This document shows positions 4,372 to 21,509 of a stretch of DNA of 26,298 bases, in pieces. The notes below the pieces were generated by a model. That model saw nothing but the letters and a program-made list of their open reading frames with translations, was not told the DNA's origin and searched no databases. The position numbers and the translations under genes were made by a program. Source of the DNA: Promethearchaeota archaeon. GTDB taxonomy: Archaea > Asgardarchaeota > Lokiarchaeia > Sigyniarchaeales > SOKP01. Each line of letters opens with the position of its first letter. Position 1 is the stretch's first letter. The stretch is from contig JBHLNZ010000004.1 in NCBI GenBank assembly GCA_048941015.1, positions 73,182 to 99,479 of the forward strand, read 5' to 3'.

Positions 4372-4677
4372 TTCTTTATTTTAAATATTTCTTTTCATAA
4401 TTCTTTTTATTCTAATTTTTATTATTCAAATTCATGGTTAACTTTAACCAAAAAAGACAATATATTTTCTCTGTTCAATTTTAACAAAGAACTCCTGAAG
4501 CTGTATCTTTTGATGTTCTATCGATTAGTTTAAGGATTTAAAGTTGAAAGTTCGTAATAATGGGAGAAAGCACTTTTAAAAAAAACCTTAAATGTTTTAA
4601 AAATTCTACAAATATAACAAGCAAGAAATAAAGTAAATGTTAAAAATTTACGATATATAATTTTATTCTTTATCAAC

Positions 4678-5268
4678 ATGTCGGATAATTCAGAAATAAT
4701 TGGGGATTATAAAGGTACAGTAAAGAATAAAGTACTTACAGCACTTTTACAATCTTATCTGGATAATCTTGATTATGATGGAATGAAATCTATTTTAAGA
4801 GAAGCAGAATTACTTGAATTAAAAGATATTAGAGAAGTTGATCCCGATGCTTCAATAGACTTTTTCTCATTTAAAAAAATTATCGCAGCACAAAATTGTT
4901 TATTATACGATTCTACTAACTTATTATATGAAATTGGGAGGAAATTTTCTTTTTATCTCTTTCCTTTCGGAAAAAAATTTGAAGAAATAATTGAAGAAAT
5001 TAATGATTTAATCAGAACTGATTGGAAAGTACAAATTAAAGAAATGAATCCAGAGACGATCACTATTCGAGTTGATAAATGCATTTTCTGTTCTGAAATT
5101 GGAGTTTCCTGCAATTTATTTAAAGGATTTTTGGTTCATTCTTTAGAAAAAACGCTTTCTTCTGATTATAATGTAATTCAAATTGCAGAAAAAGAAAACA
5201 TTAACGATCCTCATCACAATTCTTTTGTTTTGAAATTAAAAATAGAAAAAAGATTTAAAACCTCATAA
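4678..5268 (+). CDS. V4R / H-NOX-superfamily ligand-binding protein
   Basis: H-NOX-like N-terminal helices (GMKSILREAEL, LLYEIGRKF) and V4R-like ITIRVDKCIFC..SCNLFKGFLVHSLE. Confidence 0.6.
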   Translation: MSDNSEIIGDYKGTVKNKVLTALLQSYLDNLDYDGMKSILREAELLELKDIREVDPDASIDFFSFKKIIAAQNCLLYDSTNLLYEIGRKFSFYLFPFGKKFEEIIEEINDLIRTDWKVQIKEMNPETITIRVDKCIFCSEIGVSCNLFKGFLVHSLEKTLSSDYNVIQIAEKENINDPHHNSFVLKLKIEKRFKTS

Positions 5269-5344
5269 CACGAAACATTAAATATATTAAAATTCAAATA
5301 AATTTTGTTCTTCTAAAAAAAACATAATTTTGCAATCAAAAGTA

Positions 5345-5893
5345 ATGACGGAAGAAGCAAAAGAATATGTGTTTAAAATAACTATACTCGGCGATAGTGC
5401 TGTTGGTAAGACCTCGTTAATTAATCAATTTGTTGAGGGTTCTTTTGAAGAGGATTATAAACCAACACTAGGAGCAAATATAGTAAGAAAGGATGTTAAT
5501 ATCGGTGACTCAAACCTAAAAGTAAGATTAATTATGTGGGATCTTGCTGGTCAAGAAAAATACAACGTTATAAGGAGTATGTATTTTCAGGGTTGTGTTG
5601 GAGCTCTTGTTGTTTATGATATCACTCGACATCAGACATTTGATAATGTAGAATCGAAATGGTTGAAAGACTTTAAGAAATATGTAAAAAAAGAAGGAGC
5701 TTACATTCTTATTGGAAATAAAATTGATTTACGAGATCAAAGATTAGTTACAGAAGAAGAAGGAAAATCATTAGCAAAAAAAATTAAAGCAAGTGATTTC
5801 ATAGAAACAAGTGCAAAATTCGGAGAAAATGTTGAGAAAGCTTTTAAAAACCTTGTTTTTCAGATTTTAAGAAATTATGGAGAAAAATTTTAA
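5345..5893 (+). CDS. Rab-like small GTPase
   Basis: G1 GDSAVGKT, G2 YKPTLG, G3 WDLAGQ, G4 NKID, G5 TSAK. No C-terminal Cys prenylation motif. ATG 5345 (alternative TTG 5330). Confidence 0.95.
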   Translation: MTEEAKEYVFKITILGDSAVGKTSLINQFVEGSFEEDYKPTLGANIVRKDVNIGDSNLKVRLIMWDLAGQEKYNVIRSMYFQGCVGALVVYDITRHQTFDNVESKWLKDFKKYVKKEGAYILIGNKIDLRDQRLVTEEEGKSLAKKIKASDFIETSAKFGENVEKAFKNLVFQILRNYGEKF

Positions 5894-9672: not shown

Positions 9673-11973
<2,301 letters not shown>

Positions 11974-12053
11974 TCAAAATTAAATTGTAAATATTATGAA
12001 TATAAAGTAAACCTTAGTTTATTTTCTTTTCTTTTATTTTAAATAATAATTTT

Positions 12054-12854
12054 TTAAGAAATATCAATTTTTAATTCTCTTTCTAAAAAGGCGATAAATT
12101 TCTTCGATATTTCTGATTTTTTTAAACTTTTAGTTAGATAAGTGGTAATGAATTGTTTTCTTTCCGCTAAAATTTCTTTTTTTAATTTAATGTAATTCGA
12201 ATTCCTTAAAAGTTTGCCTACTACTTTCCTTGTTTCTCTATCTAGATTTTGATGGTATTTGATATTAAGTTTCTTTTTATTCTTTAACACTTGGTCTTCA
12301 AATTCATCTATTTTTAGATTTATTTCAATATAATTTATTAAATCATTAGCAATTGTTTCCACCTTCGAATTCTGAGACATATCATAGATTTTTGCTGGAA
12401 TATCCCAACTATAGCCTCCAAAATCATCAAATTTTTCTTTAATATTATAGATCAGTTGATTTGGTATTGGATTTCCTCTCACGTTATTCCATTCAATGCA
12501 TTTTTCAATCGGAGTTGAAACATGAATTAGAAAATATTTTTTATTTAAATTTTCTGCGATTTTCTTTAATTCATGTCTCATACTCGAAAAGTAATTTAAA
12601 TCATCGTTAATTACAATAAATCCGTTTTTTAAACCTAATTTAACGTCCTTTAGACTTTTTTTTCTAACAATATGCTCCTTTCTATAATTAAATCCCATAG
12701 GACTCACTTTATGTCTGATTTCATCAGGATCAACTATTTTAATCTTAAAATTTGCATATTTTTTCTCAAGAATTACCTTTATATTAGAAGCAAATAGAGA
12801 TTTACCTGATGCAGGTAATCCACTTAATATAATCAAAAAATTTTGATTAATCAC
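12054..12854 (-). CDS. pstK: L-seryl-tRNA(Sec) kinase (PSTK)/Kti12-family P-loop kinase
   Basis: LIILSGLPASGKS, DPDEIR, VINDDLNYFSSMRHEL, N-x-x-R, WD-x-P, and a C-terminal DRETRKVVG helical domain. GTG start overlaps the upstream stop. Confidence 0.75.
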   Translation of the reverse strand: MINQNFLIILSGLPASGKSLFASNIKVILEKKYANFKIKIVDPDEIRHKVSPMGFNYRKEHIVRKKSLKDVKLGLKNGFIVINDDLNYFSSMRHELKKIAENLNKKYFLIHVSTPIEKCIEWNNVRGNPIPNQLIYNIKEKFDDFGGYSWDIPAKIYDMSQNSKVETIANDLINYIEINLKIDEFEDQVLKNKKKLNIKYHQNLDRETRKVVGKLLRNSNYIKLKKEILAERKQFITTYLTKSLKKSEISKKFIAFLERELKIDIS

Positions 12855-13131
12855 TTAAAGAATCAGCTTTATTTAGGTTTTTAATTAAACTTAATTTTTC
12901 CTTTCTTGAAAATGTTTTTATCTCTCTTTCTCTTTTCATCGCCTCGTTTCTTTGAGCAAAAGTTTCAAAATATTTAAGTTTAATTTTCTTCTTTCCGCGA
13001 CAAAATTTCGCTCCAACTCCTTTTTTATGTTCTTCTAATCTTCTATAGAGATTGTTTGTATATCCTGTATAGAATCGCTTCTTATTATTTTTTGAGATTG
13101 TTTCTAAGATATAAACATAAAAAAAAGTCAT
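12847..13131 (-). CDS. Stand-alone GIY-YIG nuclease (UPF0213/SLX1-like)
   Basis: FYVYILE...FYTGYTNNLYRRLEEH..G.GAKF.RG...EAMKREREIK. Confidence 0.9.
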   Translation of the reverse strand: MTFFYVYILETISKNNKKRFYTGYTNNLYRRLEEHKKGVGAKFCRGKKKIKLKYFETFAQRNEAMKREREIKTFSRKEKLSLIKNLNKADSLSD

Positions 13132-13335: not shown

Positions 13336-13971
13336 ATTCCATTAGGGATTTTTTTAATTAAATGGGATGTCGTCACAGGTGGGGAGATTTACATGAAATA
13401 TCCCGAAGACTTAGAAATTTCTAATAATATCGTTCAACAAATTCAAATTTCTCATAACTTTGTTGAATCTTATATTACTATTGAAGAAAAAAATTGGAAT
13501 TCACTCTCATATTATAATGAAGATAAAGATATTATCATTGTATTAGCTTTAGACAAATACGATGATGCTTCGGATTATACCGTTATTCTAGATGAATTTA
13601 AAGCAGAATTAGAGTTAGATCTAAAAGAAAATGAATTACAAAAACATCTGGAAAGAATTTTTAAATTGTCTTTAAAGGTTTTTCGAACAAGGGATGAAGT
13701 TATTGCTAAGTTAAGTAATGATGTTGCTAACTTAAAGAATATACAGTACGATTTAAAAAAAAAGTTTAACAAAATCGCTCAATCGGACCATTTAAAAGTT
13801 AAAAGCAAAATTCAATTCTTATTAGCTATTAATGATGAGTTAAAATATAATGATTTAAAAAAAGCGATCAAAACCAGTAAAAAATGGTTAGATGAGGTAC
13901 TTAAAACCTTAATCAAAAATAAAATGATTGGTTATAATAGCAACAATGATGCTTATTACTTAATTTTCTGA
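13336..13971 (+). CDS. Longin/uDENN-like + coiled-coil + C-terminal winged-helix-like protein (probable ATT start)
   Basis: The frame is open upstream of ATG 13393 back to TGA at 13327, encoding (I)PLGIFLIKWDVVTGGEIYMKYP, a typical longin/uDENN beta-hairpin. GGTGA SD at 13325-13329. Heptad region VIAKLSNDVANLKNIQYDLKKKF and wHTH-like LKYNDLKKAIKTSKKWLDEVLKTLIKNKMIGY. Confidence 0.7.
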   Translation: MPLGIFLIKWDVVTGGEIYMKYPEDLEISNNIVQQIQISHNFVESYITIEEKNWNSLSYYNEDKDIIIVLALDKYDDASDYTVILDEFKAELELDLKENELQKHLERIFKLSLKVFRTRDEVIAKLSNDVANLKNIQYDLKKKFNKIAQSDHLKVKSKIQFLLAINDELKYNDLKKAIKTSKKWLDEVLKTLIKNKMIGYNSNNDAYYLIF

Positions 13972-15584: not shown

Positions 15585-15932
15585 ATGTCGATAATATTAA
15601 AGAGAAACAAGTTTCTTGAACTTTTTAAACTTCTAGCTCATAATAAATATAAGTATCAAAGTCCATTAATTTTAAGGATGTATGGTTTATTGAATGATTT
15701 GAATTTAAGAAATGAAAATAGATATATTTTATGTAACTTTATTGATCAAAACAGTGAATTGTTTCAATTAAAAAGAGATATTTACATAACCAATCAAAGT
15801 TGTTCTCTTGATCAATTGTTTCTTTATGCAGTCAATAAAGCTAGAGCACACAATAAATTAAATGCGCTCTATGATGAATATAAAAATTCTATTAATGCCA
15901 TAAATGAAAAAGTTGATACTAAAGCGATTTAA
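15585..15932 (+). CDS. Hypothetical, mostly alpha-helical protein
   Basis: 115-aa ATG ORF filling the gap between acyP and the GTPase gene. No family recognised. Confidence 0.65.
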   Translation: MSIILKRNKFLELFKLLAHNKYKYQSPLILRMYGLLNDLNLRNENRYILCNFIDQNSELFQLKRDIYITNQSCSLDQLFLYAVNKARAHNKLNALYDEYKNSINAINEKVDTKAI

Positions 15933-16072: not shown

Positions 16073-16600
16073 ATGAGTGATTCAAATTATATTATTAAAA
16101 TATGTTTACTTGGTGAAGCTAATGTCGGAAAAACATCTTTAGTTTATAGATTTATTGAGAATAAATTTAGAGAGAATTATAAAAGTACTCTTGGAGTAAA
16201 TCTTTTAAAAAAAGATATGTCTATTGAAGGATATGGCTCAGTTTCAGCCCAGATTTGGGACTTAGGTGGTCAAGAGTCTTTTAAATCTCTTAGAAAGCTG
16301 TATTTAGAAGGTGCAAATGGAGCATTATTAGTTTATGATTGTACAAAGAAAAAATCTTTTGAAAAAATTGAAAATTGGATGCAAGATTTCAAGCAAGCAA
16401 GGGGAGATGAACCACTTATCTTACTAGGAAATAAAAATGATTTAAAAGAAAATATTAAAGTTTCTGAAAATGAGGGTTCAGATTATGCCCGTAAATATAA
16501 AATGAGATTTGTTTCTACCTCAGCGAAAACAGGTTCAAATGTCGAAGATGCTTTTATAGAATTAACAAAAACAATATTAGATAAGAATTTGAATCAATAG
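16073..16600 (+). CDS. Rab-like small GTPase
   Basis: G1 GEANVGKT, G2 YKSTLG, G3 WDLGGQ, G4 NKND, G5 TSAK. No prenylation motif. Confidence 0.95.
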   Translation: MSDSNYIIKICLLGEANVGKTSLVYRFIENKFRENYKSTLGVNLLKKDMSIEGYGSVSAQIWDLGGQESFKSLRKLYLEGANGALLVYDCTKKKSFEKIENWMQDFKQARGDEPLILLGNKNDLKENIKVSENEGSDYARKYKMRFVSTSAKTGSNVEDAFIELTKTILDKNLNQ

Positions 16601-17467: not shown

Positions 17468-17617
17468 TTTATATTCTAATATTTTTTCTATTTATTTTAA
17501 TGAAAGCGGGATAAGATACAAAAGAAAAATACTTTCTCAAAAGAAATTTACATAATTAAAATTTACCTCAATTTAGATATTAACACAAAAAAAATCATTT
17601 GGTTGAAGTTAATCAGA

Positions 17618-18097
17618 TTAATCCTTTTGAAAAACAATCATGAATTCACAAAAGTTGTCTCCTTTTTGTAAACAGCAGGTTATTTCTTGTGCAAAGCAGT
17701 GAATATTACTCATTCTTTCCACTATACCTGCTAAGAGTCCTGCTTCAAAAGAGCAAAAACTTCCCTGAGAAGTTATACCTTTATTAATCAAATCTTTAAT
17801 TGATGAATGTCCTCTTAATCTTATTTGAACTATTTCATTTGTACTATCAGTAATTTCTACACTACCAATATTATATTCAGATATAATTTTTTTTAATTCA
17901 TCTGGTATTTTCCCCACATCATCAATTTGATTAACTTTTAAAGTTGTTCCCAACTCATGACCCAAATAATAAAAAATTGCTTCTAATTGATGTCCCAGTG
18001 CTAACAGGGCTCCTACTTTCATATCCCCAATTTCTTTCCCCTCTTTTAAATGTTTTTTCATTTGTGCTAATATTTTTGAAAGTAATTGCCTATCCAA
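17618..18097 (-). CDS. V4R domain protein
   Basis: FYYLGHELG, YNIGSVEI, FCSFEAGLLAGIVE..QEITC..KGDNFCEFMI. TTG start with a GAGGAG SD. Confidence 0.85.
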   Translation of the reverse strand: MDRQLLSKILAQMKKHLKEGKEIGDMKVGALLALGHQLEAIFYYLGHELGTTLKVNQIDDVGKIPDELKKIISEYNIGSVEITDSTNEIVQIRLRGHSSIKDLINKGITSQGSFCSFEAGLLAGIVERMSNIHCFAQEITCCLQKGDNFCEFMIVFQKD

Positions 18098-18153
18098 TTT
18101 AATTCTCCTCTTATTATTCTTTTTTATCTTTTTTTTAACTTTTTATTTAATTC

Positions 18154-18447
18154 TTATATTTTAACTGAGGAAATAAATCCATATAATATCGCATCTATAA
18201 TATCCTCTTCTTGTATATTCACACTCAATCTTTTATCTGCTACAATTATCGTAGGTAAAGATGTTATTTTGTATTTCTGTGTTAATGGATAACTTTTTTC
18301 AACATCTATTTTTTCTATCAATAATTTTTTCCCAAACATAGAAATATTTATCCTTTTTAACATTTCTTCAACTGGTTTGCATGGTGCACAGTGGTTTGAT
18401 GAAAATAATAGAATTCTTGGGTAACCCTCATTGAAATCTTCGAACAT
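18154..18447 (-). CDS. Small thioredoxin-fold protein (CxxC = CAPC)
   Basis: LLFSSNHCAPC, IDVEK, cis-Pro motif SLPTIIV. Confidence 0.88.
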   Translation of the reverse strand: MFEDFNEGYPRILLFSSNHCAPCKPVEEMLKRINISMFGKKLLIEKIDVEKSYPLTQKYKITSLPTIIVADKRLSVNIQEEDIIDAILYGFISSVKI

Positions 18448-18488
18448 ATAAATCCATTAAGATTAAAACATGTAAATTTGAATTTTTA

Positions 18489-19037
18489 TTATTGATCTTT
18501 AAATTTTAAATACAATTCTTTAATAATTGCCTGAAAAGCTTCATAAACTCCAGAACCTGTTTTAGCGCTAGTTTTATAATATCCGAGAAAATCTCTTTTG
18601 TTTACAATTTTATCTACTTTGTCATTATCTAACTCATTGACTTTCACTAGGTCTATTTTATTGCCAAACAAAACAATTGGAATATCTCCACAGTATTTTT
18701 TAATATCCTCATGCCAATCTTTAATATGATTAAAACTTATTTCTTCTTCCTTTGGAGCATGAGAAAATACAATAATAGCTGCTTTGCTTCCTTTATAAAA
18801 TGTAGGTCGCATAAAAGAAAATTCTTGTTGTCCTGCAATATCCCAAAAAAATAATTTACAATTATCATCATCGACTTTTTCATCATATTTTGAAAATTGA
18901 GCTCCTAATGTTTTGATATATTGTTTTTGAAATGAACCTTGAGTATATTTCTTAATTAAAGATGTTTTACCGACTCCTCCATCTCCTATTACAGTGATTT
19001 TAAAAATGAAATCTCTTTTCTCTTCACTATCCTTCAT
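18489..19037 (-). CDS. Ras-superfamily small GTPase (Rab/Ran-like)
   Basis: G1 GDGGVGKT, G2 YIKTLG, G3 WDIAGQ, G4 NKID, G5 TSAK. Confidence 0.95.
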   Translation of the reverse strand: MKDSEEKRDFIFKITVIGDGGVGKTSLIKKYTQGSFQKQYIKTLGAQFSKYDEKVDDDNCKLFFWDIAGQQEFSFMRPTFYKGSKAAIIVFSHAPKEEEISFNHIKDWHEDIKKYCGDIPIVLFGNKIDLVKVNELDNDKVDKIVNKRDFLGYYKTSAKTGSGVYEAFQAIIKELYLKFKDQ

Positions 19038-19224
19038 TATATCACTTCAAAGATTATTGCGATTAATTATATAAATATATGCTTTTATGATTTAAAATAT
19101 AAATTATTATTATACTTTTTTATTTATATTGATTTTTATATTAAAATAAAATGCTTTAAATCTTTATAATATATCAAAAATAGAATAATTTGAATAGATT
19201 ATAAATAGCAATAAAGCGATTTTA

Positions 19225-20900: not shown

Positions 20901-21044
20901 ATCAATAAGAAATATTGAATAAATAATATTTCTTATTAAAACATAGTTCATATAAAAAAGAAGTCAAAGAATTTATTATCGAAATATTATTCATCATTAT
21001 AGAAGAATTTTTTAAAAGTTCAAATTTAAATCGTAATTTTGATT

Positions 21045-21509
21045 ATGGTTATTCGAGAGGCAGGTCTATCATTTAGAGGATTTACTCTAGTAAAAAAAAG
21101 CTATCATAAAACAAGTTTAGGTAAAATAGATTCAGATTTGAGGAGTGGGTTATTAACAGCTCTTCTAAATTTTGCTGAAACAGCTTTCTCTGAAAATTTT
21201 ATCGAATATTTTGAGGGAAAAAAGTATACAATTGCCTTCTTAAAAGATGAAATTTTACCCGAGGATGGCATTGAACCAGAGTTTTTACTAGCATATGCCA
21301 TTTTAGATAAGGAGAAGAAAGTTGATAAATATATAAACAAAATTCTTTACCCTTTGTTAAAAAAAGTTCTTAATGATTTTAAGGATTTATATACCGGAAA
21401 GAATTTATCAGAAATTACTCAATTTAAAGCATTTAAAAAAAATCTCGATGCTATCGTTGGTTCCGAAACTCAAAAAATAGATCAAAAATTACAAGGATTA
21501 TTTTATTAA
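21045..21509 (+). CDS. Longin-like domain protein
   Basis: IREAGLSFRGFTLVKKSY - DLRSGLLTALLNFAETAF - IEYFEGKKYTIAF - LLAYAILD - LLKKVLNDFKDLY - FKAFKKNLDAIV matches longin topology. Confidence 0.65.
   Translation: MVIREAGLSFRGFTLVKKSYHKTSLGKIDSDLRSGLLTALLNFAETAFSENFIEYFEGKKYTIAFLKDEILPEDGIEPEFLLAYAILDKEKKVDKYINKILYPLLKKVLNDFKDLYTGKNLSEITQFKAFKKNLDAIVGSETQKIDQKLQGLFY

Follow-up and report, generated by a model that had tools for sequence, protein, structure and literature searches.

A conserved GTPase–thioredoxin–V4R gene trio in one order of Lokiarchaeia as a candidate redox-responsive GTPase module

Results

Asgard archaea encode dozens of eukaryote-like small GTPases, and to our knowledge almost none of them has been matched to a regulator or a signal. 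Here, we analyze a 26,298-nt stretch of a Promethearchaeota archaeon genome (assembly GCA_048941015.1, contig JBHLNZ010000004.1, positions 73,182–99,479; the window), in which the genes for a Ras-family GTPase, a small thioredoxin and a stand-alone V4R protein follow one another on the minus strand (the trio; Table 1). A sequence-only reading of the window had proposed three co-oriented genes with gaps of 41 and 56 nt, and all three open reading frames (ORFs) are indeed present at those minus-strand positions. The genome is a 3.59-Mb assembly of 144 contigs, 95% complete, with a GC content of ~27–30%, and belongs to family f1. Relatives used for comparison include Promethearchaeum syntrophicum MK-D1, Lokiarchaeum ossiferum and Harpocratesius repetitus, which are of the same order and a different family.

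The 56-nt gap presupposes that the V4R gene starts at TTG 18097. This start is supported by the homologous codon, which is ATG in nearly all orthologs, and by the GAGGAG word 7 nt upstream; a purine-rich word (GGAG, GAGG or GTGA) also precedes the V4R start in most orthologous loci. Across loci the spacers have medians of ~37 nt (GTPase–thioredoxin) and ~45 nt (thioredoxin–V4R), and in L064, L065, L066 and L061, which come from other genera, the first spacer is only 1–6 nt, too short for a promoter to fit between the genes. T runs of 4–8 follow the V4R gene in most loci, and those in the internal spacers are mostly ≤4. No promoter could be called in the region upstream of the GTPase gene (19038–19224) because TATA-like words are ubiquitous at 27% GC. 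The arrangement is best read as a single predicted operon of the GTPase, thioredoxin and V4R genes.

The first gene encodes a GTPase with a strong Pfam Ras match (2e-42; 145 bits against a cutoff of 21.6). All five G motifs (G1–G5) and the catalytic Gln70 can be read from the sequence: GDGGVGKT (G1, residues 18–25), the switch-I T43, DIAGQ (66–70), NKID (126–129) and SAK (157–159). The closest solved relatives are Rab23 (1.2e-33), Rab43, Rab2 and Ran, with about equal scores, and by homology the protein is a Ras-superfamily GTPase of Rab/Ran-like type. A Rab assignment in the strict eukaryotic sense was rejected, as the C-terminus (...LKFKDQ) contains no Cys and thus lacks the prenylated cysteine motif. 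Orthologs in family f2 are 48–58% identical. The genome has 63 Ras-domain matches in total. A second Rab-like GTPase encoded in the window, GTPase2, is 33% identical to the operon GTPase and is a loosely linked paralog of it: in most f1 genera its ortholog immediately follows the V4R gene, in MK-D1 and L. ossiferum it immediately precedes the first GTPase gene, and its orthologs in f2 are 51–58% identical.

The 97-aa product of the second gene is a thioredoxin by its CxxC motif, its cis-Pro loop and an above-cutoff family match (Pfam Thioredoxin, 2.1e-8; 34.6 bits against a cutoff of 23.5). The active site is CAPC (residues 20–23) and the cis-Pro is P65; C-x-P-C and the cis-Pro are invariant in 20 of 20 aligned orthologs, and all closest solved relatives are redox-active thioredoxins (best 4.9e-8). 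Outside the catalytic residues, the orthologs conserve the stretches INxSxFG and, at the C-terminus, DAILxGFxSSV. Compared with classical thioredoxins of ~105 aa, which have an N-terminal β1–α1, the protein is short, with alignments that begin at approximately position 20 of the classical proteins, and it resembles the MJ0307/glutaredoxin-like minimal form. It scores 36.6 against the NCBIfam thioredoxin equivalog, under the cutoff of 96.8, and two other thioredoxin paralogs in the genome score higher (89.9 and 68.6 bits, compared with 33.4). Hence, the operon thioredoxin is not the housekeeping enzyme but an extra, divergent copy.

The third gene encodes a protein that belongs to the V4R domain (PF02830) superfamily by its fold and its C-terminal cysteines. 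Its Pfam matches, DUF2507 (1.6e-7) and V4R (7.3e-6; score 26.4, gathering score 31), both fall just under the gathering scores. An AlphaFold2 (AF2) model (pLDDT 85, pTM 0.84) was used for a Foldseek search, which returned the V4R protein MJ1460 as the best match, followed by TRAPPC3/Bet3, YslB and the sensor domains of MopR, PoxR and DmpR; the V4R family profile also matches MJ1460 (5.6e-8). The protein had been described as Cys-rich, which is borne out by C115, C134, C141, C142 and C150, and E138 is nearly invariant. The spacing of the proposed zinc-site residues C115, E138, C141 and C150 resembles that of the Cys/Glu/Cys/Cys site of MopR. In the AF2 model the chain stops right after the last strand, with no C-terminal tail. 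The protein is single-copy in the genome. An assignment to TRAPPC3/Bet3 by sequence was rejected, given that there is no Pfam Bet3 match at E ≤ 0.1 and no Cys before residue 115.

The sole NCBIfam match of the V4R protein is the methanogen-specific V4R regulator MsvR (NF053755; 2.8e-11), and it covers only model positions 118–236, the V4R part of that family, with 43.6 bits against a cutoff of 220. Two proteins that do score above the MsvR cutoff (P0250 and P0259) have three conserved cysteines that align with C115, C141 and C150, and the CxxC of MsvR aligns with a CxxC that is kept in the f2 orthologs, where the window protein has H-S-S. The two groups hence have a homologous V4R domain with the same three cysteines, and the f2 proteins share the CxxC too, although MsvR is a protein of ~240 aa with a helix-turn-helix and the operon protein, at 159 aa, has none. 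The protein was not accepted as an MsvR itself, as it begins with the V4R helices, has no DNA-binding domain and scores far below the cutoff; by homology, it is an MsvR-type V4R domain without the DNA-binding domain. Because the helix-turn-helix domain is missing, its output cannot be DNA binding.

In five f1 species (L033:1498-2016 (-), L089, L090, L091 and L057:2903-3412 (+)) the V4R gene carries a 30–39-nt in-frame insert that contains a TAA. The insert lies in the loop between helix 2 and helix 3, which in the window corresponds to the site after codon 33, near 17997. Past its stop it encodes a conserved peptide, (V)ILxFLxxIE, and it looks translated because the differences between species are partly synonymous. 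These features suggest either a gene split with a restart at ATT or GTG after an AGGTAA word, or read-through; a bulge-helix-bulge intron and a GT-AG intron were both considered and neither fits. The 33-aa N-terminal pieces are annotated as separate proteins in public data (P0269 and P0310).

A search with the window protein detected V4R orthologs in 34 of 36 congeneric genomes, in all 14 of f2, in the single f3 genome and in none of the four f4 genomes, and a wider sample gave 64 of 68 in f1 and 7 of 7 in f2. Elsewhere in the class, the same query found only weak generic V4R similarity. A match in G057 (E = 1.4e-29) from the wider, phylum-level search is an artefact of alignment A1, which included one protein of a different V4R family (V4Rb, from L048; see below). 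On the basis of these searches, the true V4R family is restricted to f1, f2 and f3. Several hundred trios are available from metagenomes; by itself, the search for the thioredoxin gave 359 proteins, counted as representatives of 90%-identity clusters, at E ≤ 1e-5.

The surrounding DNA was examined for loci complete for all three genes, and in 48 of 50 the GTPase, thioredoxin and V4R genes lie on one strand in that order. The exceptions are G037 (L039), which has its GTPase gene in the opposite orientation to the thioredoxin and V4R genes, and the f3 genome (L046), in which the order is GTPase–V4R–thioredoxin. Judged from gene order, this adjacency is far beyond chance, and the synteny of the proposed module is thus kept strongly, within one Lokiarchaeia order. 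The trio is present in two cultured species, MK-D1 (V4R gene DSAG12_02516, protein WP_147663616.1) and L. ossiferum (NEF87_005024-26), and also in H. repetitus, and the trio proteins of f1 and f2 are 42–58% identical. In the four f4 genomes no V4R ortholog was found, the thioredoxin matches were only generic (26–34% identity) and no GTPase exceeded 42%. The four f1 genomes that lack the V4R gene lack the thioredoxin gene as well, although in each case this joint absence could reflect one assembly gap because the genes are adjacent.

Two f1 genomes have unusual arrangements. In the 98% complete G183 (contig C173, L092) the V4R and thioredoxin genes are absent, and a GTPase gene whose product is 58% identical to the operon GTPase is followed by a PIG-L/LmbE-like gene; this GTPase is either a diverged ortholog left after the loss of its partners or a close paralog. 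In G186 (L057:3-2795 (+) and L088) the V4R gene is immediately preceded by a 930-aa ORF bearing a LAGLIDADG-like motif, and the thioredoxin gene is found on another contig, at its end. An inserted element probably interrupts the trio here.

The genome has four Pfam V4R matches, all weak, of which two are next to a GTPase gene. Within the window, a gene of a second, unrelated V4R-like family, V4Rb (4678–5268 (+)), lies directly upstream of another Rab-like GTPase gene (5330–5893 (+)), without a thioredoxin gene. The V4Rb protein of the window has no Pfam match of its own and is 31–33% identical to Pfam-positive V4R proteins in L048 and L049, and the V4Rb–GTPase pair recurs in three other families of the class (L048, L049 and L068). 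A single-protein query for the V4Rb protein of the window gave no match in MK-D1, L. ossiferum or H. repetitus. A further locus of the same genome (L085; G000:C122:73422-74599) has a 219-aa frame with a weak V4R match ~550 nt downstream of a GTPase-domain gene (353-aa frame).

The trio sits in a larger block, common to the window, MK-D1, L. ossiferum and H. repetitus, that runs through the genes for CDC48, a KTI12-like protein, a GIY-YIG protein and a longin protein to V4R, thioredoxin, GTPase and GTPase2. The longin gene lies on the strand opposite to the V4R gene; the distance between the two is <1 kb in MK-D1, L. ossiferum and H. repetitus but 3.6 kb in the window. The longin gene is gone from the neighborhood in genus g5 and in L047. 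The AF2 model of its product (pLDDT 85) has a β-β-α-β-β-β-α topology, and its Foldseek matches include NPRL2/3, DENND1B, VAMP7, Sec22b and the TRAPP longins. In the window five genes, GTPase2 among them, separate the longin and V4R genes, and in f2 GTPase2 is found across the trio, at its opposite end. In g5 nothing of the shared block but the trio is left within 10 kb. TBP, CinA and an M29 peptidase flank the trio in f1 only.

Table 1 Features of the trio locus and of linked genes, in window coordinates
Feature	Position	Strand	Remarks
Ras-family GTPase gene, first of the unit	18489–19037	minus	182 aa; Pfam Ras
GTPase–thioredoxin spacer	18448–18488	minus	41 nt; longest T run 4
Small thioredoxin gene	18154–18447	minus	97 aa; Pfam Thioredoxin
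Thioredoxin–V4R spacer	18098–18153	minus	56 nt; A-rich; no T run >2
GAGGAG, Shine-Dalgarno-like	18105–18110	minus	7 nt 5' of the V4R start; read from the sequence
Stand-alone V4R gene	17618–18097	minus	159 aa; TTG start at 18097
T8 run	17587–17594	minus	23 nt past the V4R stop; candidate archaeal oligo-T terminator
Presumed promoter region	19038–19224	.	187 nt; AT-rich; between the GTPase gene and the divergent CinA gene
GTPase2 gene (second Rab-like GTPase)	16073–16600	plus	Pfam Ras 3.5e-51
Gene for longin, coiled-coil, winged-helix protein	13336–13971	plus	AF2 model; not in the operon

Discussion

The reading that we prefer, to which we give a probability of roughly one half, is that the V4R protein is a thiol or zinc sensor which its own thioredoxin resets and which is coupled to the GTPase. 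The V4R protein, probably a dimer, would carry a Cys/Glu metal or thiol site formed by C115, E138, C141 and C150, with C134 nearby, whose state would shift on oxidation and possibly also on binding of a ligand in the V4R cavity. The co-encoded thioredoxin would then re-reduce the V4R protein and thereby reset the sensor. The state of the site would be passed to the Rab/Ran-like GTPase by direct binding, with the V4R protein acting as an exchange factor, a GTPase-activating protein, a release inhibitor or an effector. In this way, redox state in a strict anaerobe would set the GTP/GDP state of one particular GTPase, although the direction of signaling, like the contact itself, is put forward here as a proposal.

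The first half of this scheme follows a known system. The V4R cysteines of MsvR make its DNA binding redox-sensitive (PMC3729527), and the M. acetivorans thioredoxin system reduces oxidized MsvR, according to a passage of PMC7278568 that cites Sheehan et al. 2015. Zinc is bound by cysteines of this same V4R region in Thor-TRAPPC3 and PoxR (PMC10933270), and the operon protein may bind it in the same manner. The sequence-only reading had suggested thioredoxin control over the thiols of the V4R protein and, in turn, regulation of the GTPase by the V4R protein. The former idea gains support from the MsvR match, the shared cysteines and the reduction of MsvR by the thioredoxin system, and the latter we infer from the operon structure. 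In contrast to MsvR, the thioredoxin is here encoded in the same operon and the likely output partner is a small GTPase; the trio is thus likely to combine a V4R thiol sensor and a thioredoxin, as in MsvR, with a small GTPase as the output instead of DNA binding.

Other relatives differ in one or more parts. The V4R sensors of XylR, DmpR, MopR and PoxR match the operon protein by fold (Foldseek 3e-5 to 2e-4, TM ~0.6), but these domains bind phenols and drive sigma-54 AAA+ activators. In MglA–MglB operons the regulator is a roadblock/LC7 dimer, whereas the partners of the GTPase in the trio are a thioredoxin and a V4R protein, and the operon GTPase is, unlike MglA, Rab/Ran-like with a catalytic Gln. 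Thor-TRAPPC3 (PDB 7YH2 and 7YH3) is an Asgard stand-alone protein of the V4R/TRAPPC3 fold with a cysteine zinc site, and 7YH3 is matched by Foldseek at 2.7e-5. Tran et al. 2024 analyzed two other V4R/TRAPPC3 proteins of MK-D1, WP_147663132.1 and WP_147661794.1 (PMC10933270); the MK-D1 ortholog of the operon protein, WP_147663616.1, is a third protein and neither of that pair. As a rule, GTPase genes of MK-D1 do not share operons with genes of the roadblock, longin or TRAPPC3 type, and that study states that genome layout is of no help for this reason (PMC10933270); the trio is an exception. Our literature searches found no paper that describes the trio or names its genes, and the MK-D1 and L. 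ossiferum locus tags appear in no searchable paper, in agreement with the earlier statement that no module of this type has been characterized.

Several observations weigh against a V4R sensor coupled to the GTPase. The genomes compared are related and not independent, and many are incomplete metagenome-assembled genomes. The only RNA-labelled run with the MK-D1 locus consists of genome-length contigs, those with the locus being 39–89 kb long, and it says nothing on co-transcription. Neither among the longer proteins nor in an exhaustive profile search did we find fused GTPase–V4R or thioredoxin–V4R proteins; one candidate (P0179, 201 aa), which joins a DJ-1/ElbB-like N-terminus to a V4R N-terminus, was rejected as probably a chimeric or truncated contig. 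In L047 (G051) the V4R protein has lost three of the four cysteines and the thioredoxin keeps its CGPC, so the target of the thioredoxin need not be the V4R site. The V4R cysteines may also serve only to bind a structural zinc, as they do in PoxR and Thor-TRAPPC3. Among 12 further stand-alone V4R loci, 10 have no GTPase gene within 3.5 kb (it is adjacent in L085 and ~3 kb away in L081), which rules out V4R–GTPase adjacency as a general rule. Finally, the synteny of the trio is partly just inherited, given that the conserved block also holds apparently unrelated genes.

A first alternative is that the unit is a proto-TRAPP, in which a V4R dimer, perhaps with the longin protein, is an exchange platform for one or more Rab-like GTPases and the thioredoxin only keeps the zinc–cysteine site reduced or assembled. 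The TRAPP core, the exchange factor of Rab1/Ypt1, is of the same α/β fold superfamily, with Foldseek matches at ~1e-5 to TRAPPC3/Bet3 of several eukaryotes and to Thor-TRAPPC3, and the trio, too, is linked to Rab-like GTPase genes (two of them) and has a longin gene in its neighborhood. However, by sequence the operon protein is of the V4R/MsvR type, with MJ1460 and MsvR as its best matches. The acylated cysteine of Bet3 sits in the N-terminal half, where the operon protein has no Cys at all, and the tail of Bet3, which enters the Rab pocket in TRAPP, has no counterpart in it. TRAPP is also without a thioredoxin, and the longin gene here lies outside the operon on the opposite strand, shares its linkage with CDC48, KTI12 and GIY-YIG, is linked no more tightly than CDC48 or KTI12 and has left the neighborhood in g5 and L047. 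The relation to TRAPP and Bet3 that the sequence-only reading had pointed out hence holds at the level of the fold and does not extend to a Bet3 sequence match, an N-terminal-half cysteine or the tail, and we consider a proto-TRAPP unlikely.

Similarly doubtful is mere co-expression, perhaps in a response to oxidative stress, with no contact of the V4R protein with the GTPase. In this reading, the thioredoxin and the V4R protein would be a redox pair, or the thioredoxin would act on the GTPase or on other targets, and the GTPase would work independently. Conserved operons do not always encode interacting proteins, the thioredoxin of L047 keeps its CxxC next to a V4R protein without the cysteines, and the order of the unit is not absolute, as seen from the inverted GTPase gene of G037 and the GTPase–V4R–thioredoxin order in f3. 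The 58%-identical GTPase of G183 has no adjoining thioredoxin or V4R gene at all. Evidence against a GTPase that only shares the operon comes from the absence of all three genes from f4, from the leading position of the GTPase gene in 48 of 50 loci, where spacers can be as short as 1–6 nt, and from other V4R families that are independently paired with GTPase genes.

Inherited synteny without a functional link, in which the trio merely lies within a slowly rearranging segment of the chromosome, finds support in the fact that, in f1 and f2 alike, CDC48, KTI12, GIY-YIG and the longin gene are linked to the trio as well. Rearrangements surround the trio but almost never split it: in the window a five-gene insertion separates it from the longin gene, GTPase2 has moved and been inverted, and g5 has dispersed the block and keeps the trio alone. 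Together with the joint loss of the three genes, this points to the trio as a selected unit and makes mere inheritance improbable.

The earlier suggestion of a KaiB-like adaptor, taken here as a non-redox protein that switches its fold and connects V4R with the GTPase, for which there is the shared thioredoxin-like fold and the chance that the conserved INxSxFG and DAILxGFxSSV stretches form a binding surface, is the least probable of all and falls on the invariant catalytic CxPC and cis-Pro, the above-cutoff Pfam Thioredoxin match, the redox-active solved relatives and the lack of any KaiB family match at E ≤ 0.1.

The trio pairs an Asgard GTPase with candidate regulators in a unit that is rare and apparently unpublished. 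Its presence under known locus tags in both cultured Asgard species opens the unit to direct tests: the three proteins are small and soluble and lend themselves to expression and to assays of binding, nucleotide exchange, zinc content and redox switching. Should the V4R protein act on the GTPase, a sensor fold of prokaryotes that is ancestral to the Bet3 subunits of TRAPP would have been linked to Rab-like GTPases before eukaryogenesis, and a strict anaerobe would couple redox state to GTPase signaling. A more far-reaching version, which we offer only tentatively and regard as unlikely, is that a V4R dimer makes direct contact with the Rab/Ran-like GTPase and sets its nucleotide state according to redox conditions, with the thioredoxin of the operon as the reset enzyme; the wiring of the Bet3 fold to Rab proteins would then predate eukaryotes, and TRAPP-type regulation would have come from a prokaryotic sensor–GTPase module.

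Additional observations

Outside the trio, positions 9673–13131 of the window, compared with L072, L073 and L074, encode CDC48 (971 bits), a kinase of the KTI12-like type and a small protein with a GIY-YIG domain. The synteny of the block between f1 and f2 is unusually long-range, at protein identities of 31–61%.

Orthologs of the longin protein begin with Met exactly at the position of ATT 13336 in the window, and L061 also has ATT there, which supports a non-canonical AUU start of the longin gene.

Loci of f2 and f3 (L035:3645-3926 (-), L042 ~4503-4736 (+) and 10 others) have a gene for a stand-alone Lrp/AsnC ligand-binding (RAM) domain (~93 aa, Pfam 3.9e-15) near the V4R gene. In most of these 12 loci it follows the V4R gene directly on the same strand, and it was found neither in any f1 locus nor in the window.

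Two window ORFs, 15585–15932 (+) (115 aa) and 21039–21509 (+) (156 aa), have no Pfam match and are kept near the trio at 42–61% identity in several f1 genera.

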